Shown here in pieces: positions 2,239 through 59,857 of a stretch of 64,000 nt of DNA. Position 1 is the first letter of the stretch. Each line of letters starts with the position of its first letter. A program made the translations under genes and the position numbers. The notes beneath the pieces are model-generated. The model searched no databases, was not told the DNA's origin, and saw only the letters and a list, made by a program, of their open reading frames with translations. This stretch comes from a virus (lineage: Duplodnaviria > Caudoviricetes): IMG/VR virus record IMGVR_UViG_3300037419_000894, positions 1-64,000 of that record. One strand, written 5' to 3'.

Positions 2239-2295
2239 AGCCCTAGCTTATGACCACACTCTCACGGGTTGGTCATAGTCGAGCGCTCTTGCTCG
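2237..2295 (+). ncRNA. Junction pseudoknot motif copy E2
   Basis: AGAGC ... CGAGC-[GCTCTT]-GCTCG; first hairpin contains TGACCACAC. Confidence 0.75.
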
Positions 2296-2313
2296 GTACT
2301 ATAGGAGAATAAT

Positions 2314-2484
2314 ATGATTATGTTCCGTGGAATGGGTATCACGCATATTGTTGCAGGCGTGGTCCTGTGCGTAGCCCAAGCAATTGGCGTCAACATGGGG
2401 CCTGGTGACACGAACCTTATCATCGAGTCACAATTGTTTGGCGGCCTGTTTATGGCCGCGATTGGTTTCAAATTCAAGCTCTAA
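2314..2484 (+). CDS. Small membrane protein (56 aa, not in ORF track)
   Basis: AGGAGA RBS; MIMFRGMGITHIVAGVVLCVAQAIG...LFGGLFMAAIGFKFKL; two hydrophobic segments. Confidence 0.7.
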   Translation: MIMFRGMGITHIVAGVVLCVAQAIGVNMGPGDTNLIIESQLFGGLFMAAIGFKFKL

Positions 2485-2529
2485 GAGTTCTAGCGTTAGC
2501 CTTTGGGCTAACTCGAGCGCTCTTGCTCG
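2483..2529 (+). ncRNA. Junction pseudoknot motif copy E3
   Basis: AAGAGT ... GTTAGCC/GGCTAAC hairpin ... CGAGC-[GCTCTT]-GCTCG. Confidence 0.75.
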
Positions 2530-2556
2530 CAACCACCACATGAAAGGAGAAGCAGC

Positions 2557-2703
2557 ATGCACATTATCTGGTATCAACTCCTAAATGAAGAGACTGGTAA
2601 GCAGTACAAGATTGAATGCGAGCGGTTGGAAGAGGCTCAACTCGTCTGGGACTCGCTGGTCTACCTTCGCAATGCATACCGGGTCACCTGTAAGCGTCCG
2701 TAA
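2557..2703 (+). CDS. Small hypothetical protein (48 aa, not in ORF track)
   Basis: AAGGAG RBS; MHIIWYQLLNEETGKQY...TCKRP. Confidence 0.7.
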   Translation: MHIIWYQLLNEETGKQYKIECERLEEAQLVWDSLVYLRNAYRVTCKRP

Positions 2704-2753
2704 GAGCAATTTACAATCTCAGCTCGCTGGGATTGCGAGTGCGCTTTTGCACT
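2702..2753 (+). ncRNA. Junction pseudoknot motif copy E4
   Basis: AAGAGC ... CAATCTCAG/CTGGGATTG hairpin ... AGTGC-[GCTTTT]-GCACT. Confidence 0.75.
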
Positions 2754-2779
2754 GCATTCCACAACCAAGGAGAATCAAA

Positions 2780-2981: not shown

Positions 2982-3239
2982 ATGACCACACAACAGACTT
3001 ACACTGTGGTCATCAACGAGTACCAGCGCAACATGCTGGCAGACATCCTGCAAGCTGTTTGTGCGCGCGACGATCTTAAGGATTTTCGCGACGTACTTAA
3101 GTCTCACGCTGGTGATGACAGCGTCTTTCTTGGCGAGGACAGCATGTACGAGGAAATGGAGACTTTCCTTGCGATGTTGAACGACATGCCACTCGCCGAA
3201 CGTTCTACACCGGGTTGCACTCACGGCTTCTGTTGCTAA
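2982..3239 (+). CDS. Hypothetical protein, probable paralog of 13741-14001
   Basis: GGAG RBS; shared I-x-E-x-QR-x2-L and ML-x2-[ML]P...G-x2-H patterns. Confidence 0.75.
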   Translation: MTTQQTYTVVINEYQRNMLADILQAVCARDDLKDFRDVLKSHAGDDSVFLGEDSMYEEMETFLAMLNDMPLAERSTPGCTHGFCC

Positions 3240-4133: not shown

Positions 4134-4192
4134 AAGAGTAATCTACAAGCTCGTGACCACACATCGCGGGCTTGTGGGTGCGCTCTTGCACC
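4134..4192 (+). ncRNA. Junction pseudoknot motif copy E7
   Basis: AAGAGT ... hairpin 4145-4175 with ACCACAC in its loop ... GGTGC-[GCTCTT]-GCACC. Confidence 0.75.
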
Positions 4193-5164: not shown

Positions 5165-5626
5165 ATGAAACAGAAACAAATCTTAGCCGTTATCGGTGGC
5201 GTCACCTTCACGAGCCTGCCTATTGGCGAGAAAGAGGCGCAGCATGTCCTAGACAGCTTCAGCCGCGCAGCCCCAAATTGCGATCCGCAAATCGTCGATG
5301 CCCAACCCGTGACCACACCCATCCGGAATGAGGATGTCGCGGCTGCTGTAAAAGCCGGACTGAAGAGTTATGATCGAGAGCTCTTAGCTCGAGGCAACAA
5401 TCTCGACGTTCTGCCAGCGAATCTGCTCAAGAACCTTGTGGATTACTACGTTGAAATGGGCGCGGCTCGCGACGAAACGGCTGCTCGTGCACTGCTGCGC
5501 ACCGCCTCCTTCGACGGTCTGCTCCGGGCATTCTGTGCATGGAACGGATACGGCGTGAATCCTGGTTCCTTGGCTAGTGCTGTGCGCCAGCTGTACAAAG
5601 CTGTTCATGGCGATAGCGATTCTTAA
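5165..5626 (+). CDS. Hypothetical protein
   Basis: AAGGAG RBS; 153 aa. Confidence 0.85.
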   Translation: MKQKQILAVIGGVTFTSLPIGEKEAQHVLDSFSRAAPNCDPQIVDAQPVTTPIRNEDVAAAVKAGLKSYDRELLARGNNLDVLPANLLKNLVDYYVEMGAARDETAARALLRTASFDGLLRAFCAWNGYGVNPGSLASAVRQLYKAVHGDSDS

Positions 5627-5766: not shown

Positions 5767-5804
5767 ATGTCCGCGAATAACCACACCACAGGAGTATTAC
5801 CATC

Positions 5805-6509
5805 ATGGCAACTGACAAACAAGCAGCTCGCGCAGGTCGTAACGTCAAAGCAGCCGACGCAGTCGTGGCAAACGGCACGAAAGCTGCCAAAGCCCCGCGC
5901 AAAGTCCCGGCTGGCACACTGTCCGAGAAGCCGAAAATGGCTGAACCGACCAATCCTCCGGTCGAAATCACGGAAGAGCAGCGCAAGGCTGACCGTCGCG
6001 CTGACGACATCACCAAGAACGACGCAATGGCCAGGTTCGTGGCACAGCAGACTGGCGAAACCAAGCCGAAAGTCGACATAGCTGCGTTCGAGGCTGAAAT
6101 GGCTGCGCTGAAAGCTAAGTACGGCGTCACCGCTGAAGTGAAGGTCAAGGCCTCGAAAGGTGATAAAATCGTCCAGAACGGCGTGACCAGGCCTGCAGCC
6201 AGCACCCTATGCGGTAAAATCTGGGCCGCAGCCGACCGCATCAGCCAGCGCATTCACAGCGTGGCGCCGATCGCACTGCTGCGCGAGGATCCGGAGCTGA
6301 AGGGTGTGAATGACCACACTATCAAGACGCAGTACGCGAAATGGCGTGCGTTCAACAACGTCTCGGGCCGGCTCCCGCGCATCCAGGCTGTGCACCAGCC
6401 GGCGGAAGGCATCTACAACGAAGCCCTCCCGCATATCGTGCAACCGCAGGCAACTGAGCCTGCCAAAAGCGAGGAGCAGCCGGCTAGCGACGCACCAGCA
6501 GCTGAATAA
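5805..6509 (+). CDS. Ala/Lys-rich protein with putative DNA-binding C-terminal domain (paralog family member 2)
   Basis: CAGGAG RBS; GVTRP...CGKIWAAAD...GVNDHTIKTQYAKWR. Confidence 0.85.
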   Translation: MATDKQAARAGRNVKAADAVVANGTKAAKAPRKVPAGTLSEKPKMAEPTNPPVEITEEQRKADRRADDITKNDAMARFVAQQTGETKPKVDIAAFEAEMAALKAKYGVTAEVKVKASKGDKIVQNGVTRPAASTLCGKIWAAADRISQRIHSVAPIALLREDPELKGVNDHTIKTQYAKWRAFNNVSGRLPRIQAVHQPAEGIYNEALPHIVQPQATEPAKSEEQPASDAPAAE

Positions 6510-6553: not shown

Positions 6554-6583
6554 ATTGACTGTAACCACACTCAGGAGTATTAC

Positions 6584-6844
6584 ATGTTCGAATTACAAAG
6601 CATTGAAATCGTCAATAGTGCTCTGGCTGAAATTGAACCTGCAATGTTGAAAGCGTGCCTTGCCAAGGTTGCCGACCAAATCGTGAACAGCGGCCTGCGC
6701 AATCGTGCAAGGATTGTGATCTCCAAGCGCACTTCAACAGGTTGGCTGGAATACCCGATCACAATCTTCAATGAGGACCATGTGGCAATATACATTGTAG
6801 CGATACAGCGCACGGTCGATAGCGAAGTTGAGTTTCATTCGTGA
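6584..6844 (+). CDS. Hypothetical protein
   Basis: CAGGAG RBS; 86 aa. Confidence 0.8.
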   Translation: MFELQSIEIVNSALAEIEPAMLKACLAKVADQIVNSGLRNRARIVISKRTSTGWLEYPITIFNEDHVAIYIVAIQRTVDSEVEFHS

Positions 6845-7290
6845 CCACACTCCTGCGGTGCGAATAGGTGCTGTTTGACCTGCTCGCGCTGAGGTTCTGG
6901 TGTTGTGAATTGCATCAATTCATACCCTGTGACAGAGGGTATGTGTGGGAGCAATTAAATACGGGTGGCTACCCTAGTCACCATGCGTTTCACCCTACTC
7001 CGACTAGGGGGGTGCTCATTTGCCCGATTTGTAGGCATCCGACTACCCTCCCCTTACTTTGCCTAAATACCGAGCAAAAATGGTGTTCCAATAGACAGAA
7101 TATGGTATAAATAAGTAATTAAGATTTTTGGTGCTCTGTATAGGGAAAAGTAGTAGTAAATAGTAGTAATGCAATAAAAACGTTAGTCTTTGAAATAAAT
7201 ACAGGAGTAGGTAGGGTTTACTTTTACCCCTCGCACCCCCAACCCGCGCAAAACTCCTAATGCAATGGTCCTACCCCAACATTTTAAATG

Positions 7291-7331: not shown

Positions 7332-8150
7332 ATGCTACAGCTCACTACCCACGTCTCCCAAGAGACTGCCTTTCGTTTCGATTATTTTCCATACACCTTC
7401 GGACACTATTGCCCGATTCGTGTTTGGGTGGACTCCAAGACCGGTAAGGGCCAGCGCCTAGCGTACCGCACGTTCAACCCAATTGACCGTGAGTGGACCA
7501 AACCCAAGTTGTCCGCATACTTCGATCTGGTATTCCTGTTCGAAAAACATGGGTTCGTCACCGAGCAGCTAATCAGCTTCCAAAGCATGCCTCTCGACGA
7601 CCTTCTGCACATTGTCTCGCACTACTACGTAACGTCAGAGCAAAAGCAGCGCATCCAAGCCTACCTAGCAACCGTGGCCAATGTAGGCCGCACAAACTGG
7701 GCAAGTCCTACAGAGCATGCGCAACATCCTGGAGGTTACGAGGTACAAGAGTTATCCATCACAAACAGCGACCCGCTGCTCACAACCAGCTCGCACCTCA
7801 TTGTTCCTGAACCACCTGCGATTGAGCAAAAGCAACTCGGGCGCCCGCCTAGCAAAAACTTGTGGAACGCGCCAAAGGTAGTGGAAGCCACACCAGACAC
7901 AAGTGTGGTCAACGCTCCCAAGCCTTGGTTGCGCGGTCCTCAGCAGCCTGCAATGTCTCAAGCAGCTACAACGTCCCTGCAAAAGCTCATTGATCAAATA
8001 CACGATCATACAGCACTGTTACTTAAGCGCGGAGACGAGCGTGACGAGTATTACATCAATCGAGGTCGTCAAAACCCGGACAACTTCAAGAGCGAAACAC
8101 AAGTGCGCAATTACGCCGCAGTTCTAGGCATCACACTCATCGAAGATTAA
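7332..8150 (+). CDS. Hypothetical protein with Pro-rich linker
   Basis: 272-aa ORF, AAGGT RBS. Confidence 0.8.
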   Translation: MLQLTTHVSQETAFRFDYFPYTFGHYCPIRVWVDSKTGKGQRLAYRTFNPIDREWTKPKLSAYFDLVFLFEKHGFVTEQLISFQSMPLDDLLHIVSHYYVTSEQKQRIQAYLATVANVGRTNWASPTEHAQHPGGYEVQELSITNSDPLLTTSSHLIVPEPPAIEQKQLGRPPSKNLWNAPKVVEATPDTSVVNAPKPWLRGPQQPAMSQAATTSLQKLIDQIHDHTALLLKRGDERDEYYINRGRQNPDNFKSETQVRNYAAVLGITLIED

Positions 8151-8174
8151 CCACACAACCCGAAAGGAACCATC

Positions 8175-8377: not shown

Positions 8378-8623
8378 ATGACCACAATCGCAAAACGCCT
8401 CTCTAAGCACCTCGGCGGCAAGTGGGCCTACGACAATCTGTCTACTTGGTGGTGCGACGACAATAAGCGCAGCGTGTCCCGTTGCAGCGCGGGCGTCGAT
8501 GAGTTCGATAACGATCTCGGCCCTGCCCAATATTGGTTGTACGGCGACGGCAACCCCCGTCGTGCGGAGCAGTACATGTTCAAGCGACCATCACTCTTAA
8601 CACTCTTAAAGGACTCCCAATGA
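8378..8623 (+). CDS. Hypothetical protein
   Basis: AGGA RBS; 81 aa. Confidence 0.75.
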   Translation: MTTIAKRLSKHLGGKWAYDNLSTWWCDDNKRSVSRCSAGVDEFDNDLGPAQYWLYGDGNPRRAEQYMFKRPSLLTLLKDSQ

Positions 8624-11012: not shown

Positions 11013-11273
11013 ATGGAATTATCCAGAGCAGGTATGGTGTGGTCACAACAGGAGCTTGAACAACTCCGCACCAATTTCGGTTCAGGTATGGACCTTGAAG
11101 AGCTAATGCGGACGCAGGGTCGGTCTGCATACGCTATCATTGCGAAGCTTCAGGAGATGGGCTTGATTGTGCTGGTCGGCCGTAGCAGCTACCACAAGGT
11201 TGTTCCGGATGCGTGGATTACCTCCGAAGGTATCCACTTTATCAACAAGCAATCAAAGGGTGGCGCAAAATGA
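11013..11273 (+). CDS. Small Myb/SANT-like helix-turn-helix protein
   Basis: W-S-x2-E-x3-L...GRS-x2-AI-x2-KL pattern; CAGGAG RBS. Confidence 0.55.
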   Translation: MELSRAGMVWSQQELEQLRTNFGSGMDLEELMRTQGRSAYAIIAKLQEMGLIVLVGRSSYHKVVPDAWITSEGIHFINKQSKGGAK

Positions 11274-11590
11274 TCAACGCAAACCAAATACGACTCCAGC
11301 ATGTCACCGAGTTCCAACTTTGGGACGGCGAAATGACCGTGCATGCCTTTCAACATATCGGCGCCCACGGCTTCCCAAGCGCTGCAATCGTCATCACACG
11401 TATGGACGACCCAATCGAAACACGAGTGTGGTCAGGATACGGGCGTTACAAGCCTAGCGAAAAGCCAACTGAAGCTCACATGAGTCAGTGGATTGCAGAT
11501 CAACTTAATCGCTTAGCAACGGGCGCCTATGGCAGCACGTCAGCAATTGTTGAAATTCGTTCGCCTGATGTAAGGATCATCTATGGGTAA
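11270..11590 (+). CDS. Hypothetical protein
   Basis: ATGA overlap with upstream stop. Confidence 0.7.
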   Translation: MINANQIRLQHVTEFQLWDGEMTVHAFQHIGAHGFPSAAIVITRMDDPIETRVWSGYGRYKPSEKPTEAHMSQWIADQLNRLATGAYGSTSAIVEIRSPDVRIIYG

Positions 11591-12123: not shown

Positions 12124-12233
12124 TTATGACTAATCCGACCAATCAAAAACAGCTCAAGTAGCGCCACAGCGTAAGCCCTTCAGTGGGCTTACTCGGTTGC
12201 ACTGCTGTCAATAACCACAACAGGGAGCTTACA

Positions 12234-12428
12234 ATGGAACAAGAAGAAATCTGGATTAACGGTGTGCAGTATGAAGCAAAGCGAGCAACGCTCAGCCACG
12301 GTTGCTCAGGTTGCGTAGCCTATCAACTGTTACCTAGCGGCTCGAGGTACATCAATCAGCAGTTGTGTGGTCAACTTCCGAAGTGTGTAGCACCTAATGT
12401 AGTCTTTACTCTCAAACAGGAGAAATAA
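12234..12428 (+). CDS. Small Cys-containing protein
   Basis: GGGAG RBS; CxxC plus two more Cys. Confidence 0.7.
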   Translation: MEQEEIWINGVQYEAKRATLSHGCSGCVAYQLLPSGSRYINQQLCGQLPKCVAPNVVFTLKQEK

Positions 12429-23066: not shown

Positions 23067-23143
23067 TCCAAAGCTAGCGCCGCGCCCCTACATGCGTTAT
23101 AATGGGGTGCAGTACGTTAATAACCACACAACAAGGAGTCACA

Positions 23144-24485: not shown

Positions 24486-24492
24486 CCACACA

Positions 24493-49007: not shown

Positions 49008-52000
49008 ACGCCCGAGGTCGCGTCGCGAATAAAGATACCTTGAGTTTCAAGTCGCTTCAACTTGCTTGCTGTCACTGCCGTGTCACGCTGCAATGCAACC
49101 ATACCTGCCTTGTTTTCCGCGCGGAAGCCTGCAAACTGCGCTTCCAGTCGTTGAACCGCTGAGACAAACACTGCACTATTGTCCGACCGCTTCATCCGCA
49201 GCAGCGACATCAGTTCGTTGTTATCTGCTTTAGGCATGACTCGCTCACCCTCATGGAGAAGCGCAGGCATGGTTTTCGGCACAACGTTGATACCATCTGC
49301 AAACGGATGCAACCACTTGTATTCGTTGCTCTGCATAATTGCACGACCCACATCAGCAATCGTAGCGCCACGGTTCTTAATTGCGTCCTGCCAGAAGGCT
49401 AACCCTTCTGCATCACCCGGACGACCGAGAAGCTGCTGATACAGGACGTCCAAGCCCATGCCGTTCGCACTTTCAAAGCTGCTGCCAGTTGGAGCGTTGA
49501 CCACAGCCTGCTGAGCTTGTGCAATCGTTGCAGAGTTGTTGAACGCTACCAGCGCATCGCGAACCGACAAGACTGAGCTATTGATACCCTTCAGAAGATC
49601 GTTGCGTTGCTTTGCATCGTTAAGGATTTTATCCTGTTCAGCAATGTCCGATTTGTACTTAGCATCGAGAGCAGCGAGCTGAGCGGCGGTTCCAGAGTCA
49701 ATTGCTGCAATGGTAGCATTAATGCCGTCGATTTGCAACTGGGTATAGTCTTCTTGCGTCTTGGAACTTTGTCCCAAAGTCTCCAGGATCTGCTTTGTAC
49801 GAGCTTGATCCCGCATAAAGTCAAGCTCAGTTGCAAACATCTTTGTAGACACTTGCGAAACATTTGCCAATGCATCGTCAAGACCGCCAGCTTTTGTTAG
49901 ATCTGCACCACTGCTCGACAGGTTAGTTAGATACTTCTGAGCAGCCAATCGACGCGAGTAGTCAAGCTGTGTTGAGTGAACAATGGTGCTCTTGATAGCA
50001 TTTTGGATGCTGGAGGTCACATGCTGGATGGCATTTAGATAATCCTGGGCAACCTTCAGTCGCCCCTGCGCATCCTTTTTTGCAACGTCCGCAGCACTTT
50101 GAATCGAATCCTTTTGTACGTTGTAAGCATCCTCAATAGCGGTCTTTTGCGCGCTCACTGCATCGGACAGACGGCTGTAATCGCTGTCGGCTTGTTTCAG
50201 CAGACTGTCGAGCAGGTCTTGTGACGCTTGCTTAGCCTTAGTTGCTGCGTCAGCTTCATCTTGAAGTGCCCACACACGCTCCTGCAACGGGCGCAGGCTT
50301 GCATCCATACTATCCAACTCCATCTGACGCTGCGCAGTGACCACACGCTGCTTCTCGACGCTGTTGTTAGTGAGGTCCGCGAGCTGGGACTCAAGGGCTA
50401 GGCGGTCTTTTGTGAGACCCTTCTGGAATTCCTGGACCTTAAAGAAAGCGTCCTGCACAGACATGATATCAGCCAATCGCTTGACACCGTCTTGAGTAGA
50501 CAGGTCGAGCCCAGCGACCACAGCTTTGAGCTGTGCCTCAGTTTGGATACTCGACAGACCCAACTTGTCAAGCGCATCCGATACAGCTTTTGTGAGCGGA
50601 GCAATCTTTTCTGAGTCGGTAAGATAGTTCTGCGTGTACGAGTTAATGGATGCATTAACTGCATCCAAGCCACCCATCATGCTCACAAGTTGTTCACGGA
50701 CCGAATCCGACGCCAAGCCTACTGCCCCAAACGCCGTCTTGGTATCTTTTCCAAGGGCTTGCGCCGCAAGGTCTGTCACCTTGAAGACATTGTTCAGGCG
50801 CGTCAAAGTTTGAGACGCAGTTTCATTAGCTTGGCTAAACTCAGCAATGTTCGGAATGACCTGTTTGGCCATATCGTCGCTGAGGCTAGAGAAATAGTCC
50901 GTGAGGGCTTTTTGGTTAGCAGCAGTATCGTTCGTCAACGTGATATCAAACGTTGTTTGGAACCTATCAATCGCTTCAGTAGACAGACCAAGGTCGCTCG
51001 CAGCTTGATGAGCGGTAGTCCGCAGAGCTAGGAAACTTTGATACAACGTATTGGTGAAGTCCTTTGTAAGGTCTTGACCAGCCATCCAGCTGCTATCGCT
51101 ACGGAACCAACCACCCTTCTCCTTAATATTCTGATACGAGATACCTCCCGCAGCCGAACCATCGATCCAGCCTTTAATACCTTGGCTTTGAACCTCAGCT
51201 GGACCGTGCCCAAAAGCTTTGTCCCATAGGGCAGCGGCAGCTATCACACCTCCAATCCATGGAAGAGCTGCTGCGGTGGCTGCACCGAAGGTGGCAGCAC
51301 TAGCCTCAGCTGCCATACCTGCGCTTGCGAAGGTTTCCGCAGCTCCGGTCATCATTGTAAAACCGCCAGCCATTGGTACAGTACCAGCCATACCTGCACC
51401 GAAAGCGGACAAGCCGCTTCCACCGAGAGAGCCCAAACCGAAGTAAGATCCAACAGAGCTCAATCCGTTACCGACACCAGCGATAGCAGTACCAGCCCCG
51501 CCAAACACGTTGCCTTTAAGCAGATTGTACGAGTTAGAGATAGATGACGCGGTTCCGAGCAGATTAGCCCCCGAGCCTGCAGCCGTAGCATTCGGGCTAA
51601 CCACACTTGCTACAAAGTTGCTCACAGGTTCAATGATTGGGTGCAGGATCGTTTTTGCAAACGATACCTCCATATCATGGATGAGCTTTTTCAAGCCTTT
51701 GCCGCCACCGTCGACAATTGCGCTCGCAAGGTCGTCACCAATCTTTTTATTGGTTTGTTTCCAAAGCTGGTCAGCTTCTTTTTGAGCAGCAGCAGCAGCT
51801 TCTAATTCCGCACCACGGTTAAGTGTGCCGGAGTATTCTCGACGCTTTTCGATGATTTGCTTCAGCTTGTCAAGCTCAGCCTCATACATCTTCTGAGCCT
51901 CGCTGCCCACACTCGCGTAAGTTACACCAAGCTCGGTCCAAATAACACCCTTCTCGAGCAGCAATTGTATTGCGTCTGCTTGTGCCTGAAGCTCGTTGGT

Positions 52001-54748
52001 TGCAGCGTCCTCTTGAGCCTGCTTGTACAGGTCGATCTGCTCTTTGGTCTTGCCAATCTCCCCGTTCTTTTCTTTTTGTTTATCGATCAGCTGGTTCAGG
52101 CGTTTAAGTTCATCGTCACCGGACTTATTGATCGCTTTGACGTATTTGTCAACTTGCTGCTCGTTGAACTGTTGGTCAGCCAACGCTTGGGCAGCAGCAA
52201 TCTTAGCCCTGCCTTCGTTGTATGCGTCAATGGTAGCCTGGATCTGCTTACGGACGTTAGCTGCGTCTACGTTGTTCAGCGGCTTGTACTTCTCCAAGAT
52301 TGCAAGCTTGGCCTTTTCTTCGTTTTCGAGTGCAGTGAGTTCTTCAGCACGAGCAGCCTTAGCTTGCTCGTATGCATCCTCTTGGCTCAGGCTACCTTTC
52401 TTAAACTGGTCTTGAATCAGCTTAATGCGTGCATCACCAGACTGCTTCGCCATGTTGAACAAGGCAGTCTCATGATCCAATGCACCCTGCAAGTCTTGCT
52501 TGCGTCCGTCGTTTTTGACCGCTGCAACCTTTTGCGTGTGAGTCTTAATAATATTTTCTTCACGCTCAGCAAGATATGCTGCATTGTCTTTTTTATAACC
52601 CGGTAGTCCCGCTTCAATAATATCGTTTTCTTGATGAAACTTGTCCAAAGCGTCTTTAAGCTCGCTTTGGGACTTCTTCATCAGCCGCACGTCTTCAATA
52701 GCACGTACAGTCAGTAAGTGCTTTGCATCAGCAGCCTTCTGCTCTTGGTCAGCCTGCTTTGCTGCTCGCTCATTCTCGTTGCCAATCTTTTGCTCGAGAT
52801 CATAATACTGCTGCAAAAGCAAGATGTCTGTTTTAGACATATGGGTCGTGTCAGTCTTAATCGACCCATCGTCATTCTTCGCAAGCTTGTTTATTAAAGT
52901 TTGTTCTTGGTTGGCTAGGCTGCTTTTCTTGCCAATATCAGCCATTGCCTGAATTGCACCCTTGACGGCGCCGGTTACAGCATGCCAGCCACGCTCAATC
53001 CAACCAATGTACTCGGTGGAAGCTTCAGCTTGCCGCTTAGTTTCTTCTGCATAAAGCTTGATCGCAAGTGCAGAGGCTTCCCGAGACTTACCTTCTTTCT
53101 CAAGCTGGATAATTGCTTCCATCTGCGAGACGGTAAGGAAGTGGTAATGCTCGTCAAGCTTTTCAATCGCCTTACTGACTTGGAAATAACCATTAATGCC
53201 TGAAGTGGTTCCGCGAACAACAAGCGTTTCAAATTCGGAGATCGTCTTATTGACTTCCACGCCAAAGGCGTGCGCTAGCCCGGTTGCGCTGGCAGTGATT
53301 TCGTCAATCTGGTCTTTAGTGAACTTCCCCGACGAAGTTAGCAGCGCGGCCGACTTGTATGCGTCCGTGTAAGCCCCGTGCACCTTGCCCACACTCTGCG
53401 CGAGTGCTTCAAGGCTGTCGCGGGTTTCGCCTGCAAAACCGTTAGTCCGGTTAATTGCATCGTTAAATGCGCGTGTCTGCTGCTCACCACGATTGACTTC
53501 GTAAGCAAGAACACCGAGCGCAGCAACCACCCCAAGTGTGGTCATGCTAAAACCTGTCAGCGAGATGGATGCGGAGTTGAGATACTCCATCATAACCATC
53601 AGCGATCCCGGAATACGAGTAAAGCGGCCTTGCAAAGCTTCATGGGCAATAACGATTGCTTCGGTCCGCACTCGGTTATTGCCGAAAGCTGCGCTAAGCC
53701 CGTTAGTGGCCTGTGTAGCGTCTCGTGCTCCGTGTCCTACTGATGCGAGTTGTTGCACAAGCGCATCGTAGTTCGGCAAGTCGCGAATAGCGGCTGCGCT
53801 GAACGTGTTTTCAATTGTACCTTGAGAGATCGCGGGGTTGGCTTGGTACGCCCGCAAACGGTCAAGAATCGCAACCTTTTGTTTAGCAGATGTCTCAGCC
53901 CACTTGATTTCTTCGATTGCTTGTTTTTCTGCAAGTGCAATGCCCTTAGCAACCGCTGCATCCTGCGCAGCAAGTTCACGCTCCCAAAAGGCTACATAAT
54001 CAGCCTCTTGTTTCTGGCGCATCTTCCACAGCTCCACGTCGCGTCGCTGTTGGATTTCAATCTGCTTCGCAACCGCAGCCTCTTCAGCAGCTGTCTGTTT
54101 CGCCAATGCAGCATCTTGAGCAGCCAGGGTCTTCTCCCACCAGCCCACGTATTCGACAAGTTGCTTGTTGCGCTGTTCGTTTAACCACACATCGCGCTCT
54201 TGTTCAATGCGGGTTATCTCTTGGTAGGCGCGCACCTGCTCTTGATATACCTCGATGTCGCGTTTCTGCTGAAGCGTATGCTCCATTTCTGCGCGAGTGA
54301 GACGCTCCAAGTTTGCAATGAGTGGTTCAGCGTCGTTTATAACCCCGAGTTGAGCAGCACGATAGCGATACAGCTCCTCAGTAGACATGCCAAAGGTTGC
54401 ATTGAGCTCGCGTAGCTTAGCAACAAGGTTGCTGCCAGCGTCAGCTGTCGCTCGTTGGATACGCTCAATCTCTTTCTCAGCTTCAATTTGCGCAAGGATG
54501 GACCTTTGGAGATCGTCAAAACCTTGCTTAGTGACAACCGTGCCGGTCTTGAGGTCTTCGAGCTTTTTAACAGCACGGATCGTAGCAGTGCCAATCTTGG
54601 TTCCAACCAAGTCAGCAGTATCTGCCACTTGATTGAGAGACTTCTCCAACTGTTCAACTTGCTTAATCCCGTCCCTAGTGTCCACACCAAGGGAAAGAGT
54701 TGCCGTGTCGCCGTTTCCGCCGTTGCCGCCAGTTGGAGTGCTCATCAT
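49004..54748 (-). CDS. Tail tape measure protein with C-terminal DUF4214-like domain
   Basis: 1914 aa, helical Ala/Gln/Glu-rich; LYQQLLGRPGDAEGLAFW...MQSNEY near the C-terminus. Confidence 0.93.
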   Translation of the reverse strand: MMSTPTGGNGGNGDTATLSLGVDTRDGIKQVEQLEKSLNQVADTADLVGTKIGTATIRAVKKLEDLKTGTVVTKQGFDDLQRSILAQIEAEKEIERIQRATADAGSNLVAKLRELNATFGMSTEELYRYRAAQLGVINDAEPLIANLERLTRAEMEHTLQQKRDIEVYQEQVRAYQEITRIEQERDVWLNEQRNKQLVEYVGWWEKTLAAQDAALAKQTAAEEAAVAKQIEIQQRRDVELWKMRQKQEADYVAFWERELAAQDAAVAKGIALAEKQAIEEIKWAETSAKQKVAILDRLRAYQANPAISQGTIENTFSAAAIRDLPNYDALVQQLASVGHGARDATQATNGLSAAFGNNRVRTEAIVIAHEALQGRFTRIPGSLMVMMEYLNSASISLTGFSMTTLGVVAALGVLAYEVNRGEQQTRAFNDAINRTNGFAGETRDSLEALAQSVGKVHGAYTDAYKSAALLTSSGKFTKDQIDEITASATGLAHAFGVEVNKTISEFETLVVRGTTSGINGYFQVSKAIEKLDEHYHFLTVSQMEAIIQLEKEGKSREASALAIKLYAEETKRQAEASTEYIGWIERGWHAVTGAVKGAIQAMADIGKKSSLANQEQTLINKLAKNDDGSIKTDTTHMSKTDILLLQQYYDLEQKIGNENERAAKQADQEQKAADAKHLLTVRAIEDVRLMKKSQSELKDALDKFHQENDIIEAGLPGYKKDNAAYLAEREENIIKTHTQKVAAVKNDGRKQDLQGALDHETALFNMAKQSGDARIKLIQDQFKKGSLSQEDAYEQAKAARAEELTALENEEKAKLAILEKYKPLNNVDAANVRKQIQATIDAYNEGRAKIAAAQALADQQFNEQQVDKYVKAINKSGDDELKRLNQLIDKQKEKNGEIGKTKEQIDLYKQAQEDAATNELQAQADAIQLLLEKGVIWTELGVTYASVGSEAQKMYEAELDKLKQIIEKRREYSGTLNRGAELEAAAAAQKEADQLWKQTNKKIGDDLASAIVDGGGKGLKKLIHDMEVSFAKTILHPIIEPVSNFVASVVSPNATAAGSGANLLGTASSISNSYNLLKGNVFGGAGTAIAGVGNGLSSVGSYFGLGSLGGSGLSAFGAGMAGTVPMAGGFTMMTGAAETFASAGMAAEASAATFGAATAAALPWIGGVIAAAALWDKAFGHGPAEVQSQGIKGWIDGSAAGGISYQNIKEKGGWFRSDSSWMAGQDLTKDFTNTLYQSFLALRTTAHQAASDLGLSTEAIDRFQTTFDITLTNDTAANQKALTDYFSSLSDDMAKQVIPNIAEFSQANETASQTLTRLNNVFKVTDLAAQALGKDTKTAFGAVGLASDSVREQLVSMMGGLDAVNASINSYTQNYLTDSEKIAPLTKAVSDALDKLGLSSIQTEAQLKAVVAGLDLSTQDGVKRLADIMSVQDAFFKVQEFQKGLTKDRLALESQLADLTNNSVEKQRVVTAQRQMELDSMDASLRPLQERVWALQDEADAATKAKQASQDLLDSLLKQADSDYSRLSDAVSAQKTAIEDAYNVQKDSIQSAADVAKKDAQGRLKVAQDYLNAIQHVTSSIQNAIKSTIVHSTQLDYSRRLAAQKYLTNLSSSGADLTKAGGLDDALANVSQVSTKMFATELDFMRDQARTKQILETLGQSSKTQEDYTQLQIDGINATIAAIDSGTAAQLAALDAKYKSDIAEQDKILNDAKQRNDLLKGINSSVLSVRDALVAFNNSATIAQAQQAVVNAPTGSSFESANGMGLDVLYQQLLGRPGDAEGLAFWQDAIKNRGATIADVGRAIMQSNEYKWLHPFADGINVVPKTMPALLHEGERVMPKADNNELMSLLRMKRSDNSAVFVSAVQRLEAQFAGFRAENKAGMVALQRDTAVTASKLKRLETQGIFIRDATSGV

Positions 54749-55586
54749 TGACCTTTTTCAGCTTTTTTCCGACTCTCAGAATAAGAGTGGAGGAGGAAGG
54801 CGCGATCAACTGCCATTAATGCTCTTACTTCAATCGGGAGCAATTCAATCTGAAGATTAAACGCCCAATTTCGAATCTCGGTATGGGTGATCGGCCCATG
54901 CGCCATAAAGCTTTGCCGCGTTGCGTCCAGCTCTGTAAACCATGACCACACATGCTCAAGTTCCCAAGGGCAAGGAACTTCAGGTGGTACGTCCTCGAAG
55001 GTCTGATCCGTTATGACTTGGGGAGCGAAGCAGTTCTTCTTTGCCGCATTGACATGCTCCGTCGTTGTGGCTCCGTCGTCCTGCTTGCTCCCCCAAAAGA
55101 ACTTGCACTTGGCAAACTCTACCAGCCTACGGATCAGATCTTCATAAAATTTCCGTCAGCTTCCAGACCCTGGCTGATTTTGGTGCGCCACAGCGGGTAC
55201 TGCGTCAGCAGGGTGTCGACAATCTTGCGGTCGAAGGTTGCAGCCTGGCCCTCGTCGCCGAAGCCGAACCATCCGACGGTCACTGCGACCGCCATGCCGT
55301 GCTCGCTCTGATCAACGCTGTCAGCGATGACCTTGGCGCCTTCTTCGGTGGAGCTGTCGACCTGCTGGGTGCGGGTTGCTGCGCGCATGATGCCCGTGAT
55401 GCGCTGACGAGCTTTCTCGTCTTGGTATTCTTGACTGTTCTTGCCGACGATATAGAAGCCGGCAAGCGGCTTGCCTTCAGCATCAAAGACAACTGGTACT
55501 GAATGCTGGGTCTGGTTCAGACCCGATTGGGTAAGACGGCCGATTTCGATCAGGCCGTTGACGAGGATTTGTTGCGCGTTCGACAT
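54745..55586 (-). CDS. Tail assembly chaperone, -1 frameshift fusion (gpGT-like)
   Basis: Slippery A-AAT-TTT (complement of 55146-55152); the -1 frame is open from there into ORF 54745-54951. Confidence 0.8.
55134..55586 (-). CDS. Tail assembly chaperone (gpG-like)
   Basis: Between tail tube and tape measure genes; 150 aa. Confidence 0.85.
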   Translation of the reverse strand: MSNAQQILVNGLIEIGRLTQSGLNQTQHSVPVVFDAEGKPLAGFYIVGKNSQEYQDEKARQRITGIMRAATRTQQVDSSTEEGAKVIADSVDQSEHGMAVAVTVGWFGFGDEGQAATFDRKIVDTLLTQYPLWRTKISQGLEADGNFMKI

Positions 55587-55682: not shown

Positions 55683-56918
55683 TCAGACGTACTGGCTGTC
55701 CTGAATTGCCATGACGGTTTGGAAGTTAGTCTGTCCAGAACCGCCAGCAATGCATTCCAGTGCGGTGAACGGTGCGGTCAGGACCAGACCTTTCTCACCA
55801 TCGTCCTTACCAGCACCTCCCATTTTAACACGGGGCAAGGAAATTGCAACGAAATCCGCGTTTGCTGCGTTGCTGGCCGTGAAGGCAGCGTACAGCGACA
55901 CTTCCACTTCGTTGACGAAGTAGTCGCGGATCGTTGCATCGGTGAACAGCACCGTGGCCTGGCCGCTGACCTCGATGACGCCCGGCAGGATGTCCGGGTC
56001 AACGTTTGAGCCAACCACACCGCCGATGACGTTGTAGTTACCCTTGACGGTAACGTTCAACCCTGTCACCAGACCGACAGCGACGCCATTCAGGTACAGG
56101 ACGCCGTTCGATGCTGCCAGGCTGGAACCCGTGGTCACCGGAGTCGGGCTGACGAAGTAGCCTGCGGTGCTCGTGGTCATGTTAAGACCCTTCACGCCGA
56201 AGTCGACGGTCGCCATGCCGGTCGGCGGCAGCTTGATGTCAGCCTGGTCGATCACGCAGTCGGTGAACTGTTCCGCCTGCACGATGTCCTGGAAGTTGTG
56301 CTCGAAGGTGAAGTAGTCGCGGGTATGACCGGTCTGCGGGACGTAGGTATGCTTGCCAACGGACGTGATGGTAACTGCTGCGGTTTCAGTCTTCGCAACC
56401 ACAGGCTGGCCGTCCAGGCGGCAGACAGTCATAACCTTGTCGGTCAGGTTGGTGATCATCATGTTAGCTGCGTTGTTGGCGGTCGCCGTCGTGGTGAAGC
56501 CCGATGCACGAACCACCATGCCGATCTTGAACTTGTTGCCAGTCAGGAAGCTTGCAGTGGTTGCGGTGAGCGTGCCCGTATTGGTTCCGGTCGAGGCAGA
56601 GACAATATCACCAGCTGCTCCAACCACAGACACAGCGCTGACCACACGCTGACGAAGGATAGCCTCGAAGAACTGCTGATGGGTGGCTACACTCAGCTCA
56701 CCAGAGACGGTGCCGTCAACACTGCGCACGCCGTGACGGAAGTCAGCGCGTTGCTGCGACGGTCGGATCTCGCTTGACTGGTAGGTAGCCTTTTTCAGAT
56801 CCAGATTCGAAGTGGTACGGCGCAGATTCTGGCCCGTACCGGTGCCAGCTGCTTGTCCCAGGCCTGGTTGACGCTTGAACGTTACAAGCTTATTTACGCC
56901 GGAGGCGATGGTAGTCAT
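55683..56918 (-). CDS. Major tail tube protein
   Basis: 411 aa; SEIR-x-S...R-x-G-x-R-x-V-x-G pattern; position. Confidence 0.88.
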   Translation of the reverse strand: MTTIASGVNKLVTFKRQPGLGQAAGTGTGQNLRRTTSNLDLKKATYQSSEIRPSQQRADFRHGVRSVDGTVSGELSVATHQQFFEAILRQRVVSAVSVVGAAGDIVSASTGTNTGTLTATTASFLTGNKFKIGMVVRASGFTTTATANNAANMMITNLTDKVMTVCRLDGQPVVAKTETAAVTITSVGKHTYVPQTGHTRDYFTFEHNFQDIVQAEQFTDCVIDQADIKLPPTGMATVDFGVKGLNMTTSTAGYFVSPTPVTTGSSLAASNGVLYLNGVAVGLVTGLNVTVKGNYNVIGGVVGSNVDPDILPGVIEVSGQATVLFTDATIRDYFVNEVEVSLYAAFTASNAANADFVAISLPRVKMGGAGKDDGEKGLVLTAPFTALECIAGGSGQTNFQTVMAIQDSQYV

Positions 56919-56980
56919 AATTTCCTCTCTGTTTAAGAACCCGCCAAAGCGGTAATTGAGCCGCCCTCAGCGGCAGGTTA

Positions 56981-57628
56981 TCAACTATTAAAAATGTCTG
57001 CTTGGTATTCGATTACTACGGGCACAACAAAGTATTCGTCCACAGGATGCCCGCCAATGATTGCCGGGGTCTTAAGGATCTTTACATCCACACCGTCTGC
57101 ACTAAACACAGCTCCGCGCTTAAACGTAGACCGGATTAGTTCAGCGCGTGTGGTCACGGCTAATGTACCAAGGCCTGTCGGATAGTTGAGCATGATCTGG
57201 AACATGCCCGTTTCCCGAATCAAACTGTTGCCGTAACTTGGGTTCTCAGGGGTAGCTGGAAGCAGATATGCGCGCTGGTAGGCAACCCCGGCAAGCGGTT
57301 TAAAGTAAGCACCCTCCCATGCGGTAAGCTTTGCGCGCGCAACCCCGCCAGCACCCGCTGCCGTGCTTGCTATGGGGGTGTTCGTAACGGGGTGCAGCAG
57401 CGTAAAAGTGCTTGACCCCGTCACGTTCACTGTAAATGCGCCGTTCAATGCTCCAACCGAGTGACCTTGAATTTCAACAAGCAGACCGCTCTGGAGGTTG
57501 TGCGTAGCCTGTGTGGTTACAGTGACCACACTCCCGGAGGTAGAGCTCACGATCACTGCATCTGGGATGATTCCAGGCAGGCTATCGAGTGCGCTCTCCA
57601 ACGCTTGTCGGATCTTTACCAGAGACAT
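56981..57628 (-). CDS. Tail terminator (DUF4128-like) with inserted beta-rich domain
   Basis: IRQALE...AWE...GMFQI-x-L-x-YP-x-G-x-G; insert about aa 24-98. Confidence 0.7.
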   Translation of the reverse strand: MSLVKIRQALESALDSLPGIIPDAVIVSSTSGSVVTVTTQATHNLQSGLLVEIQGHSVGALNGAFTVNVTGSSTFTLLHPVTNTPIASTAAGAGGVARAKLTAWEGAYFKPLAGVAYQRAYLLPATPENPSYGNSLIRETGMFQIMLNYPTGLGTLAVTTRAELIRSTFKRGAVFSADGVDVKILKTPAIIGGHPVDEYFVVPVVIEYQADIFNS

Positions 57629-58111
57629 TTATTTACCCTCGCTAGCAATGTAGTCCAGCTCTGCTTGACGGCAAATCTGAGCAAACTCCATGCGCGTTAG
57701 ACCAACAATGCCTTGAGGCGGAACCTGCGTGCTGTGTAGACCAGTCTCAAGCAAAGCGGCGTAAGGTACATTGTTCACAAAGTAGTACACATGCCCGACA
57801 GGCCACCTAGGGATTGCCTTCCTCATGCGCTCCATTGACGCATGGCCCATCTTATCAGATCCGGGAATCTCACCAGTCGGGACTGTGTCCACTCCAAGCT
57901 GCCAGTTGTTCTTAAAGTGGCCCGGGACATACCCCTTTGGCCAGTATGGAGGATGCCACAATTCAGGATTGCCGACAACCGACCGATACACAAGCTTCCA
58001 AGAGATTTCTTCCAGCACCATTCGCGTAACTTTCTGAACGGCACCCTTACCCTTGAGCACGAAGCGGAACATGTCGTCCCGCGCTTTCATGTTAAGCTCT
58101 TTCGCGCTCAT
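57629..58111 (-). CDS. Tail completion protein (HK97 gp10-like)
   Basis: G-x-FKNNW, NNVPYA-x2-LE-x-G-x-S-x-Q-x-P-x-G. Confidence 0.8.
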   Translation of the reverse strand: MSAKELNMKARDDMFRFVLKGKGAVQKVTRMVLEEISWKLVYRSVVGNPELWHPPYWPKGYVPGHFKNNWQLGVDTVPTGEIPGSDKMGHASMERMRKAIPRWPVGHVYYFVNNVPYAALLETGLHSTQVPPQGIVGLTRMEFAQICRQAELDYIASEGK

Positions 58112-58494
58112 GCTCGTAGCACCAAAAGATAGAGCAGCGGGACCGGTCCTGGCCGTTGCTCCTGAATGTTGACGATTGTGTAGGTGAGACCGTCAAGAAT
58201 TACTTGATCCTGGAAGTTCGGTTTCGGACCCACTGCATCCATATATACCCATTTTTCTGATTTTTGTGAGAGGCTATTGGGTACAAGTGTCTGGCCGAAC
58301 TGTAGTGCAATGCGCAGGCCAGGCTGGTCCATTGTAACGACATATCGCGTGGACTCCACAGGGGCAACAGTTTCTATCATGCCTGTGGACGGATCGTAAG
58401 TTCCTGATCCTAAGGATTGCTGGCGCAATGTTGCAGCCCGTCCAAATTTTTGGATCGTTTTTGCAACGTTGGTAGCAACCCTGTTATAATCCAT
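58108..58494 (-). CDS. Head-closure protein
   Basis: KFGR-x2-TL...YDP-x-TG; position. Confidence 0.75.
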   Translation of the reverse strand: MDYNRVATNVAKTIQKFGRAATLRQQSLGSGTYDPSTGMIETVAPVESTRYVVTMDQPGLRIALQFGQTLVPNSLSQKSEKWVYMDAVGPKPNFQDQVILDGLTYTIVNIQEQRPGPVPLLYLLVLRA

Positions 58495-59022
58495 TTAAGT
58501 CCTGCTAAGCTTCATTGTAGCACCGCCAGTCCGGCCAGATAGATACGGTTTCAAAATTGCGTCAACAGCGGGGTATTGTTTTTGCCGGATGCTGTAAGGA
58601 TCATATTCCGTGGTGATTGGCCCTATGGTCTCCAGCAATACAGCCTGTGACGTGTCCTCCGTTAATTCCCCCATGCTAGCACGTAGAGCGAGCTCAATGC
58701 AAGCCCTTTTTACTTCATTGGGAACCTTGTCAAACGGGAAATAATTGAAACCGTAGACCCACTCACCGTCTACTGTGATTTGCACATTGACTCGCGGCCA
58801 GTCAAGAGCCTGCTCGATGGTGCGCCGCGCGCCAAGCCATCTACCTCGATAATTCTGAGTCATGTAGTCCGTCGCGCGACGCAAAGCTTGTTCTTTTTCA
58901 ACAACAGTTACATCACCCCAAATGGTGATGCCGCGGTTGGTGAAGTAAGTGTCGGCATCATCTACCGAAGCGTAGGACTCCGCATCGCTAATACCTTGAC
59001 CAATTTCGATAGTAAGAGCCAT
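58495..59022 (-). CDS. Head-tail adaptor (DnaT-like domain)
   Basis: ESYASVDDADTYF, QALDWPR, VPNEVKRACIELA, ETIGPITTEY. Confidence 0.85.
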   Translation of the reverse strand: MALTIEIGQGISDAESYASVDDADTYFTNRGITIWGDVTVVEKEQALRRATDYMTQNYRGRWLGARRTIEQALDWPRVNVQITVDGEWVYGFNYFPFDKVPNEVKRACIELALRASMGELTEDTSQAVLLETIGPITTEYDPYSIRQKQYPAVDAILKPYLSGRTGGATMKLSRT

Positions 59023-59023
59023 T

Positions 59024-59857
59024 TTATTTCTCCAATGGATATTTCTGACGCCGCCCCTTTAGCGGATAAGCTTGTTGGCGCCCGTACAGCGGGAAGTGCC
59101 TTGGTATCACAATACCACTCAGCAAGCTCACTGAGGGGCAAGAGTTCACTTGCCTACACAACGTTACAAGGATTTCATGCCGCTGCGTAACTAATCCGCC
59201 CAATGATTGATTTACTTGGCTACACGGGGAGGACAGAAGCCTATAATGTTGCGACACCGATCCTGCGCTACAGCTGTTTGCTTGGTCCACAGCTGCACCA
59301 GTTAATTGATAATGCTGTTGGACACTCCCGCTATCTGCGGAATTGACCTGAGTGCACTCAGCGGCAGTTAACGTAGCTCTGCCTTGAGTTGGAATTGCAC
59401 CTGTGGAGCTACTGTTCGTCTGGCTGCAATCGCTAGCTGTGAGTTCATGGTGCTGTATAACCACACTACCGCTTGAAGTGTGGTTATTGACATCGCTACC
59501 GCCAATGAGTTCGTGATGTTGCACTACCAGTGCAGACAAGCTCAAGTTCACCTGCGAGCTGTCCGCAGCTAGTAGTTTGTGACGCGATGCCACAACCCCA
59601 GAACCAGATGCATTCGCTTGTGAGCTATTTTCTGCGGTCAGCTCATGACGGACCCCTGTGACCACACCTACTGAAGAAGTATTGGTCTGGGTGCAATTCG
59701 CACCAATAAGTTCGTGGTGTTGTGTTACAACACCGGTAGCGCTGGAATTGACTTGAGCAGAACCAACTGCGGTCAAAGTGTGGCGGGTGACCGTTGTGCT
59801 GGTGCGCGCACCGAGGCCGAGCGATCGTAGGCCTAGCGGTATTAGGCCGAGCGCCAT
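59024..59857 (-). CDS. Virion protein with ten approximately 22-aa repeats
   Basis: Repeat unit (R/H)HELT-A-x2-(C/S)-x-Q-x-N-SS-x-G-x-V. Confidence 0.75.
   Translation of the reverse strand: MALGLIPLGLRSLGLGARTSTTVTRHTLTAVGSAQVNSSATGVVTQHHELIGANCTQTNTSSVGVVTGVRHELTAENSSQANASGSGVVASRHKLLAADSSQVNLSLSALVVQHHELIGGSDVNNHTSSGSVVIQHHELTASDCSQTNSSSTGAIPTQGRATLTAAECTQVNSADSGSVQQHYQLTGAAVDQANSCSAGSVSQHYRLLSSPCSQVNQSLGGLVTQRHEILVTLCRQVNSCPSVSLLSGIVIPRHFPLYGRQQAYPLKGRRQKYPLEK

Follow-up and report, generated by a model that had tools for sequence, protein, structure and literature searches.

The Prim-Pol of NrS-1 recognises 5'-TTTGGTTA-3' and, more efficiently, 5'-GTGG/GTGA-3' (PMC8718748, citing Zhu et al. 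2017), and the primase of pRN1 recognises 5'-GTG-3' (PMC8718748). The recognition site is bound by the helix-bundle domain (HBD) of the enzyme (earlier work cited in PMC8718748), and the base immediately 5' of the site is where synthesis begins (PMC8718748). Here we describe a DNA word, TGACCACAC, that is repeated along a 64,000-bp stretch of phage DNA (hereafter the window), which is the first 64 kb of the complete 74,241-bp IMG/VR phage genome IMGVR_UViG_3300037419_000894 (G000). We think it likely that this word is a hard-wired grid of recognition and priming sites for the phage's own NrS-1-type primase-helicase. The sequence of this genome was found in soil and rhizosphere metagenome runs, and no description of such an array was found in the literature searched.

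Exact TGACCACAC is found 39 times in the window (25 on the plus strand and 14 on the minus strand) and 48 times in the complete genome (33 and 15, respectively). Dinucleotide-preserving shuffles give an expectation of 0.71 copies, with five as the largest count, so the enrichment is about 55-fold; a previous reading of the window made from the letters alone (the sequence-only reading) had rightly reported over-representation, but its figure of about 75-fold, from 0.5 expected copies, was too high. All 38 coordinates given in that reading are correct, and one plus-strand site, at 5310, had been overlooked. An unbiased k-mer screen and a single-substitution scan showed that the TAACCACAC variant is likewise enriched (15 copies in the window); the remaining single-base variants were near background in the scan. 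The selected core is therefore broader than the word first noticed: it is the octamer TRACCACA, of which the genome has 86 copies and the window 73. Position 9 is C at about three quarters of the sites, and no conservation beyond the nine positions was seen in the site flanks. The octamers of the window are listed here by the coordinates of their 8 bp, with the strand, the form and, as a lower-case letter, the following base.

2251..2258, + strand, TGACCACA, c
2983..2990, + strand, TGACCACA, c; gene start ATG at 2982
3005..3012, - strand, TGACCACA, g
4154..4161, + strand, TGACCACA, c
5310..5317, + strand, TGACCACA, c; the overlooked site
5778..5785, + strand, TAACCACA, c
6311..6318, + strand, TGACCACA, c
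6562..6569, + strand, TAACCACA, c
6842..6849, + strand, TGACCACA, c; TGA is a stop codon
7904..7911, - strand, TGACCACA, c
8148..8155, + strand, TAACCACA, c
8379..8386, + strand, TGACCACA, a
11038..11045, - strand, TGACCACA, c
11427..11434, - strand, TGACCACA, c
12212..12219, + strand, TAACCACA, a
12366..12373, - strand, TGACCACA, c
13884..13891, - strand, TGACCACA, c
13999..14006, + strand, TGACCACA, c; ATGA stop/start overlap
14059..14066, + strand, TGACCACA, g
14286..14293, + strand, TGACCACA, c; ATGA stop/start overlap
14748..14755, + strand, TAACCACA, t
15492..15499, - strand, TGACCACA, c
16240..16247, - strand, TGACCACA, t
16529..16536, + strand, TAACCACA, g
17298..17305, + strand, TGACCACA, t
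17694..17701, - strand, TGACCACA, c
19645..19652, + strand, TGACCACA, t
20128..20135, - strand, TGACCACA, a
20391..20398, + strand, TAACCACA, a
22852..22859, + strand, TGACCACA, c; within the primase gene
23121..23128, + strand, TAACCACA, c
24483..24490, + strand, TAACCACA, c
25304..25311, - strand, TGACCACA, a
26149..26156, + strand, TGACCACA, c
26240..26247, - strand, TGACCACA, c
28201..28208, + strand, TGACCACA, c
29250..29257, + strand, TGACCACA, c
30276..30283, + strand, TGACCACA, g
30790..30797, - strand, TGACCACA, a
32252..32259, + strand, TAACCACA, c
33588..33595, - strand, TGACCACA, a
33867..33874, + strand, TAACCACA, c
35470..35477, + strand, TGACCACA, a; position shared with G001
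35928..35935, - strand, TAACCACA, c; position shared with G001
36405..36412, + strand, TGACCACA, c; gene start ATG at 36404
36919..36926, + strand, TGACCACA, c; position shared with G001
38445..38452, + strand, TGACCACA, c; position shared with G001
38613..38620, - strand, TGACCACA, c
40248..40255, + strand, TAACCACA, c; position shared with G001
41046..41053, + strand, TGACCACA, c; position shared with G001
41506..41513, - strand, TGACCACA, g
41590..41597, - strand, TGACCACA, c; position shared with G001
42094..42101, - strand, TGACCACA, a
43069..43076, + strand, TGACCACA, c
43640..43647, + strand, TGACCACA, c
44027..44034, - strand, TGACCACA, c
44546..44553, + strand, TAACCACA, c
44751..44758, + strand, TGACCACA, c
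47787..47794, - strand, TGACCACA, c
48125..48132, + strand, TGACCACA, c
49498..49505, + strand, TGACCACA, g
50338..50345, + strand, TGACCACA, c
51598..51605, + strand, TAACCACA, c
53537..53544, - strand, TGACCACA, c
54182..54189, + strand, TAACCACA, c; position shared with G001
54943..54950, + strand, TGACCACA, c
56639..56646, + strand, TGACCACA, c
57149..57156, - strand, TGACCACA, c
57512..57519, - strand, TAACCACA, c; left arm of a 21-bp inverted pair
57523..57530, + strand, TGACCACA, c; right arm of the 21-bp inverted pair
59458..59465, + strand, TAACCACA, c; convergent pair with 59479, 20 bp apart
59479..59486, - strand, TAACCACA, c; partner of 59458
59659..59666, + strand, TGACCACA, c

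When proteins and per-gene codon usage are kept, shuffled genomes retain 13.1 +/- 1.6 copies of the word against 48 observed, so the enrichment persists under the codon-preserving shuffle that had been proposed as a check; most of the ~13 surviving copies are judged to be immovable sites (intergenic, or at start or stop codons). Within genes the word is mainly in two phases, xTG-ACC-ACA-C (Thr-Thr, sense) and xGT-GTG-GTC-A (Val-Val, antisense), which are its cheapest coding solutions, and about one fifth of the sites lie within the non-coding ~10% of the genome. According to the gene calls, 16 of the TGACCACAC sites in the window are sense, 18 are antisense and five are intergenic. These counts agree with the roughly equal split first reported, and support the claim that the word is a DNA-level signal under selection, independent of transcription and unlike stoperators. 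Genes starting ATGACCACAC were also seen correctly (starts at 2982, 13998, 14285 and 36404). The inverted pair at 57511-57531 exists, but its left arm is the variant TAACCACAC and not the exact word. This divergent 21-bp near-palindrome and the convergent pair at 59458-59486 are both in structural-gene coding sequences, with opposite-strand sites 12-20 bp apart; such close pairs could be bidirectional start points, or could be due to chance given independent tiling of the strands.

The sites also keep their positions in the closest relative found, G001 (polymerase 75% identical; proteins ~75%): eight out of 14 alignable sites are at the identical position, compared with 13.6% for random octamers in the same alignment (p about 2e-4 by our own binomial estimate), as had been expected of a signal conserved in relatives. 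With 20 kb as a megablast query, the phage collection yielded no close relative. The word is a real, strongly selected, lineage-wide DNA signal.

TRACCACA is 15-60-fold enriched in 15 phages with hosts from at least six genera, and in 12 named phages it is the top octamer or among the top few (34-62 copies per genome). TRACCACA phages include PaMx25, DoCa3 (Xanthomonas), HD01 (Acinetobacter), MiCath (Pseudomonas putida), 9g and Seurat (Escherichia coli), and further R7M (Alteromonas), PBPA162 (Iggyvirus), Salva (Stenotrophomonas), Vibrio R29Z, Klebsiella K9PH25C2 and Sphingomonas MMDA13; the host genera sharing the word are Escherichia, Pseudomonas, Vibrio, Acinetobacter, Alteromonas and Sphingomonas. 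The host genome that was checked, E. coli K-12 (4.64 Mb), shows no enrichment (58 copies of TRACCACAC vs 97 of the reversed control word), and thus the word cannot be put down to Chi, an uptake sequence or another signal of the host genome. Phages of a single host species can differ: among P. aeruginosa phages PaMx25 has mostly TGACCACA, PBPA162 mostly TAACCACA and PaMx42 GCCCACA, and three words in one host species argue against a fixed host reader such as DnaA.

Other phages were picked solely because they encode more distant homologues of the primase-helicase of the window phage, and these carry sister words: GCCCACA in PaMx42, RcSpartan, Kharn and phiAxp-1, TCCACAG in Erebus, CCACAGR in RHEph06, TGKCCACA in Sulfitobacter M39 and TGRCCACA in VpKK5 (the words TGTGGTTA, TGCCCACA, CTGTGGG and CTGTAGCG were tested in Seurat-like, PaMx42-like and phiAxp-1 genomes). 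A CCACA core is common to all sister words.

The sites are evenly spaced, strand by strand. In most genomes the coefficient of variation (CV) of same-strand gaps is 0.3-0.55 (1.0 for random placement), with median gaps of 1.4-3.4 kb across genomes, and the even spacing has p <= 0.0015 in 14 out of the first 17 genomes tested. When 13 TRACCACA genomes are pooled, only 11 out of 603 same-strand next-site gaps are shorter than 300 bp (77 expected), whereas 65 out of 606 opposite-strand gaps are (71 expected); these gap statistics are backed by circular-shift controls. Each strand is tiled separately and is indifferent to the other strand. Same-strand repulsion together with opposite-strand indifference fits a reader of single-stranded template and not a duplex-binding coat protein, so the suggestion of a binding array for a DNA-coating protein, made by the sequence-only reading, is disfavoured.

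The strands are not used equally. In 12 out of 12 clade-A genomes, most sites read CCACA on the primase-sense strand (349:229 pooled, p 7e-7), and this majority is antisense to the terminase gene in 10 out of 10 genomes, clade B included. The bias is uniform over oppositely transcribed arms, with no switch seen anywhere in the genome. Should 5'-TGTGG-3' be the template form, the majority of sites would be on the lagging-strand template of forks running with late-gene transcription, which suggests predominantly unidirectional late replication. Clade-A genomes also differ in the details of the word. At position 2, the window phage, PaMx25, Vibrio R29Z and MMDA13 prefer G, and Seurat, PBPA162 and R7M prefer A. 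Directly after the octamer, C is preferred by the window phage, G001 and MMDA13, T by Seurat, Vibrio R29Z and K9PH25C2, A by R7M, and G by PaMx25 and Salva. These lineage-specific preferences suggest that primase specificity, or the first primer nucleotide, has been fine-tuned.

Only the primase tracks the word among the five replication proteins common to all array-bearing phages. In a 27-taxon primase tree the word classes occupy separate parts: all 13 TRACCACA phages form one group (support of 99 in the Shimodaira-Hasegawa-like approximate likelihood ratio test, SH-aLRT; 12 phages in a smaller careful tree, 100/99), the four GCCCACA phages share a starred clade with VpKK5, and Erebus pairs with RHEph06 as its sister. 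MMDA13, phiAxp-1 and RHEph06, which joined the analysis after the first tree, each grouped with phages of their own word. In the polymerase tree the window phage is sister to G003, which has no array, and Erebus, with a different word, comes next (100/99); the polymerase data reject a TRACCACA clade (difference in log-likelihood 115.5, approximately unbiased (AU) test p 4e-56). G003 (IMGVR_UViG_3300020047_013624) has a polymerase, clamp, helicase and exonuclease that are the closest to those of the window phage after G001 and closer than PaMx25's, but its primase (34413-36677) belongs to another clade and is more distant (30% vs 48% for PaMx25 in tblastn to the window phage). G003 looks like a natural primase swap without an array: searches that included degenerate 7-mers and all CCACA extensions found no convincing enriched or evenly spaced k-mer in G003 or G002 (the best candidate is ACYTTGG, ~3-fold). 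Site specificity thus changes with primase lineage, with G003 and VpKK5 as exceptions.

The primase-helicase itself has the domains expected of an NrS-1-type enzyme; it is listed here with its parts.

20520..23066, + strand, primase-helicase, 848 amino acids (a.a.), proposed motif reader (phrog_3022 DNA primase, E 3e-209)
20520..21113, + strand, Prim-Pol catalytic domain of the archaeo-eukaryotic primase (AEP) type, residues 1-198 (predicted local distance difference test score, pLDDT, >90 in the AlphaFold2 (AF2) model; D83, D85 and H135 invariant)
21150..21467, + strand, helix-bundle domain, residues 211-316, proposed template-recognition module (all-helical in the AF2 model)
22206..22664, + strand, DUF3987 helicase-type domain, residues 563-715 (PF13148, E 1.7e-8)

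Its Pfam matches are DUF3987 and, weakly, the NrS-1 polymerase HBD, and both PF22763 (NrS-1 polymerase HBD) and PF13148 are found in most of the 120 listed homologues of the primase. Residues 8-267 match NrS-1 N300 and 7ola (chain named 'DNA primase') in a sequence search of the PDB; we take 7ola to be a staphylococcal primase-helicase. In the AF2 model of residues 1-400 (pLDDT 85), the helical bundle (211-316) comes after an alpha/beta domain. NrS-1 N300 is at the top of the Foldseek matches to this model (E 8e-12), and the bundle also matches the pRN1 primase with its HBD (3m1m, 9aam). The catalytic D83, D85 and H135 are invariant among homologues, and so are Y238, Y255, R264, R267, R274, K276 and R292 in the HBD. 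An AEP Prim-Pol with its catalytic acidic residues and an adjoining helix-bundle domain is therefore encoded by the window phage. The reverse complement of the octamer, 5'-TGTGGTYA-3' (TGTGGTTA), contains GTGG and is identical to NrS-1 TTTGGTTA at seven out of eight positions, and TGTGG is present in the reverse complement of every word class, so the GTG/GTGG core read by the known enzymes is common to all of them.

The likeness to NrS-1 thus lies in a homologous Prim-Pol with its helix-bundle domain, in the best fold match and in the presence of PF22763 across the family. The two differ in how the sites are laid out and used: NrS-1 has a single TTTGGTTA in an origin-like repeat cluster and for the rest makes use of the frequent GTG triplet, whereas here the full octamer is written 86 times, evenly per strand, and is kept in at least 15 phages; and the NrS-1 enzyme is the replicative polymerase, whereas the window phage has a separate DNA polymerase and clamp. 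In NrS-1 (AB746912) the sole TTTGGTTA is at 17198-17205 (read as TAACCAAA), and 11 copies of AGTGTAAC(C), in both orientations, are found within 300 bp around it (17061-17369); this cluster looks like a replication origin, with iterons around the experimentally mapped site. Salmonella phage Sasha has tandem CACCTGTAG with 30-bp and 21-bp periods (39932-40052 and 52087-52360; five and 14 copies), and these arrays are iteron-like clusters, not a dispersed grid. pRN1 ORF904 shares with the window enzyme an AEP Prim-Pol plus HBD, a GTG core and priming that starts outside the motif; its motif has only three bases, so no enrichment is needed, whereas here 7-9 bases are specified and the genome is shaped to supply them.

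Under the reading that we favour, TRACCACA(C) would be the complement of a primase template site, 5'-(G)TGTGGTYA-3', with 5'-TGTGGTCA-3' and 5'-TGTGGTTA-3' as the template-strand forms. The helix-bundle domain would bind the octamer on single-stranded template during replication, and the Prim-Pol domain would start a primer beside the bound octamer. With ~8 specified bases a chance site would be expected only every 30-60 kb; since this is too rare, selection would have written a site about every 1-2 kb per strand, mostly through silent codon choices and intergenic positions. A spacing of 1-2 kb is on the scale of a bacterial Okazaki fragment. The strand serving forks that move with late-gene transcription would have about twice as many sites. 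The enrichment, the selection, the even per-strand spacing, the conservation across the family, the primase co-variation, the fold and the near-identity to an experimental site are observations; we infer that the primase binds the word, with the TGTGG strand as its template, and that the sites probably serve to prime the lagging strand.

Several observations weigh against this reading. By the NrS-1 rule, the base templating the first primer nucleotide in the window phage is G, which means a pyrimidine start, and this is unusual for primases. The spacing in the window phage itself is less even than in its relatives (CV 0.70, p < 0.0005). The phylogenetic pattern could equally arise from a protein that is inherited together with the primase. 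The discordance between the primase and polymerase trees rests on two taxa, G003 and Erebus, and the TRACCACA group was named after the tree was seen. Half of the sites in VpKK5 are TGACCACA, yet its primase groups with the GCCCACA clade. The G003 primase is of the same family (~36-39% identical) yet comes without a detectable array, so the array is not obligatory for the family. No dispersed array was found in NrS-1, Sasha and three Gram-positive temperate phages, which belong to an outer primase clade (in the Gram-positive phages the homology is to the N-terminal domains); the array seems to accompany only the high-specificity members of the primase family.

For the wider group we lean, less firmly, to the view that many virulent phages of proteobacteria (Queuovirinae, Septimatrevirus, Titanvirus, Kleczkowskavirus-like phages and uncultured 70-kb soil phages) fix their lagging-strand starts in this way, with a primase-helicase of 7-9-base specificity co-evolving with its grid, so that a change or swap of primase forces turnover of the word throughout the genome. 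If this is true, Okazaki starts in these phages would be a genome-encoded fixed map rather than near-random picks among frequent triplets, and priming would become directly observable and manipulable. The grid would also be a DNA-level constraint on codon choice over whole phage genomes, and a signature from which primase specificity, and probably fork direction, could be predicted. Recoded or synthetic therapy-relevant phages (of Pseudomonas, Klebsiella, Acinetobacter and E. coli) may replicate poorly without the words, and the phages would offer a natural system for the co-evolution of an enzyme with ~50-90 dispersed targets.

The other readings to be considered involve further genes of the phage. 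It is a siphovirus (tape measure, major head protein) with a Queuovirinae-type replication and 7-deazaguanine module, including the DNA polymerase and clamp, a ligase and the 848-a.a. primase-helicase. Homologues of PaMx25's annotated queuine tRNA-ribosyltransferase (a DpdA candidate), QueC, QueD, QueE and FolE are present. The remaining genes of interest are as follows.

5805-6509 and 32589-33185, paralogous putative DNA-binding proteins
14623-16077, UvrD/PcrA-like helicase
20269..20520, + strand, small gene (83 a.a.) directly upstream of the primase (phrog_11967; weak match to 'DNA binding protein' phrog_4745)
24036-24485, DUF7173 protein
26190-27029, AAA_24 protein, at the position of Sak4 in PaMx25
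28372-29334, Cas4-type exonuclease, homologue of PaMx25's Cas4-domain exonuclease
29336-31123, RadD-like helicase of superfamily 2 (SF2), adjoining the exonuclease

The UvrD/PcrA-like helicase, the exonuclease, the RadD-like helicase and the AAA_24 protein make up a recombination toolkit that is consistent with recombination-dependent replication.

The same primase-helicase might instead bind the word as duplex through a C-terminal origin-binding domain, the sites then being distributed mini-origins for helicase loading or replication restart. The alpha protein of phage P4 (with octamer iterons) and the primase-helicases of staphylococcal islands bind duplex iterons, 7ola (by our identification a staphylococcal primase-helicase) is the best PDB sequence match, the repeats of NrS-1 and Sasha are clustered and origin-like, and the co-variation with the primase tree fits equally well. 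We nevertheless consider this unlikely, as 86 dispersed single copies, even per strand and unclustered, are unlike known iteron origins, and the word matches the single-strand template site read by the NrS-1 HBD and not a known duplex iteron. Another DNA-binding protein, co-inherited with the primase module, could coat or organise the genome, and there are two candidates. A homologue of the 83-a.a. protein, with its weak 'DNA binding protein' match, is directly upstream of the primase in 10 clade-A phages, but none was found there in the array-bearing 9g, K9PH25C2, VpKK5 and clade B; the DUF7173 protein carries a putative DNA-binding annotation in 9g and HD01, and every TRACCACA phage whose gene content was examined has it, but it was not detected in the array-bearing RcSpartan and Kharn, and its own tree is unresolved and uninformative. 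The paralogous putative DNA-binding proteins are absent from Salva, PaMx42, RcSpartan and Kharn. The word is, moreover, asymmetric and single-copy, and a duplex binder should not cause repulsion on the same strand only, which makes a coat or organiser quite unlikely. A Chi-like control site for the phage's own Cas4-type exonuclease and RadD-like helicase, at which end-resection would give way to recombination-dependent replication, would account for an asymmetric octamer with conserved strand bias, and both genes are found in every array-bearing phage. However, the G003 exonuclease and helicase (53% and 49% identity) fall among those of the TRACCACA phages although G003 has no array, and the helicase tree mixes the word classes. 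Chi is not evenly spaced, unlike the word, and we know of no Chi-like site for Cas4-type phage nucleases; this explanation is very unlikely.

The sites might instead mark single-strand nicks of the virion DNA, of the site-specific kind found in T5, phiKMV-like phages and Pseudomonas phage tf; the motifs associated with such nicks are short, asymmetric and phage-specific. The nick sets that are known have few members, irregularly placed and for the most part on a single strand, in contrast to 86 sites on both strands; a nanopore study of the relative iggy never uses the word 'nick', and no nickase candidate tracks the word, so that nicks are highly improbable as the explanation. The least probable class, to which we give almost no credence, comprises signals read by the host or linked to modification (loading of DpdA, host Chi, titration of DnaA boxes or an uptake sequence). 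The window phage does encode DpdA and preQ0 genes, and TRACCACA matches the DnaA box (TTATCCACA) at 6-7 out of nine positions; against this stand arrays without DpdA and DpdA without an array, the lack of enrichment in E. coli, and the three words of three P. aeruginosa phages. Loading of DpdA, as proposed by the sequence-only reading, fails in both directions: Salva (44 TRACCACA sites), and PaMx42, RcSpartan and Kharn with their sister arrays, lack the whole preQ0/DpdA cluster, and G003 has the cluster with no array. A link between the word and 7-deazaguanine modification is tempting, but wrong; published DpdA targets are only GA or GGC (PMC10484667). The host Chi-like site put forward in the same reading is likewise rejected by the E. 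coli K-12 counts and by the sharing of one word across the six named host genera. The DnaA-box consensus TTATNCACA has T at position 4 and a conserved host reader; that T is replaced in TRACCACA, position 4 being A or C in most word classes, and the DnaA box was rejected on this ground and on that of the three P. aeruginosa words.

Other known systems resemble the array in part. The stoperators of Cluster A mycobacteriophages (13-17 bp, transcription-oriented, bound by the immunity repressor of a temperate phage) are also many dispersed asymmetric sites, found in genes as well, but here transcription sense is ignored and the bias is uniform across arms, and stoperators were rejected. Chi, the FtsK-orienting polar sequences (KOPS) and the SpoIIIE recognition sequences (SRS) are likewise octamers that are asymmetric and whose strand bias goes with a directional process on DNA; they are host-genome signals of RecBCD/AddAB or FtsK/SpoIIIE, whereas our word follows a phage gene. 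The sites of T7 gene 4, 5'-(G/T)GGTC-3' / 5'-GTGTC-3', are phage-encoded lagging-strand starts on single-stranded template, and the reverse complement of the word, GTGTGGTCA, contains a T7-like TGGTC. The T7 primase, however, is of the unrelated DnaG type (TOPRIM, zinc finger), and its pentamers are frequent enough by chance; to our knowledge no evenly spaced array has been reported for them, and the TGGTC reading was dropped as involving the wrong enzyme family.

Among minor observations, Rfam at its gathering thresholds found no family in the whole window, and two hammerhead ribozyme candidates (5707-5775 and 16273-16335) are unsupported at that threshold. The genome of Klebsiella phage K9PH25C2 has a strong excess of C runs 8-10 or more bases long (10 C8 words vs 0.2 expected), which may be real poly-C tracts or may have arisen in the assembly of homopolymers.

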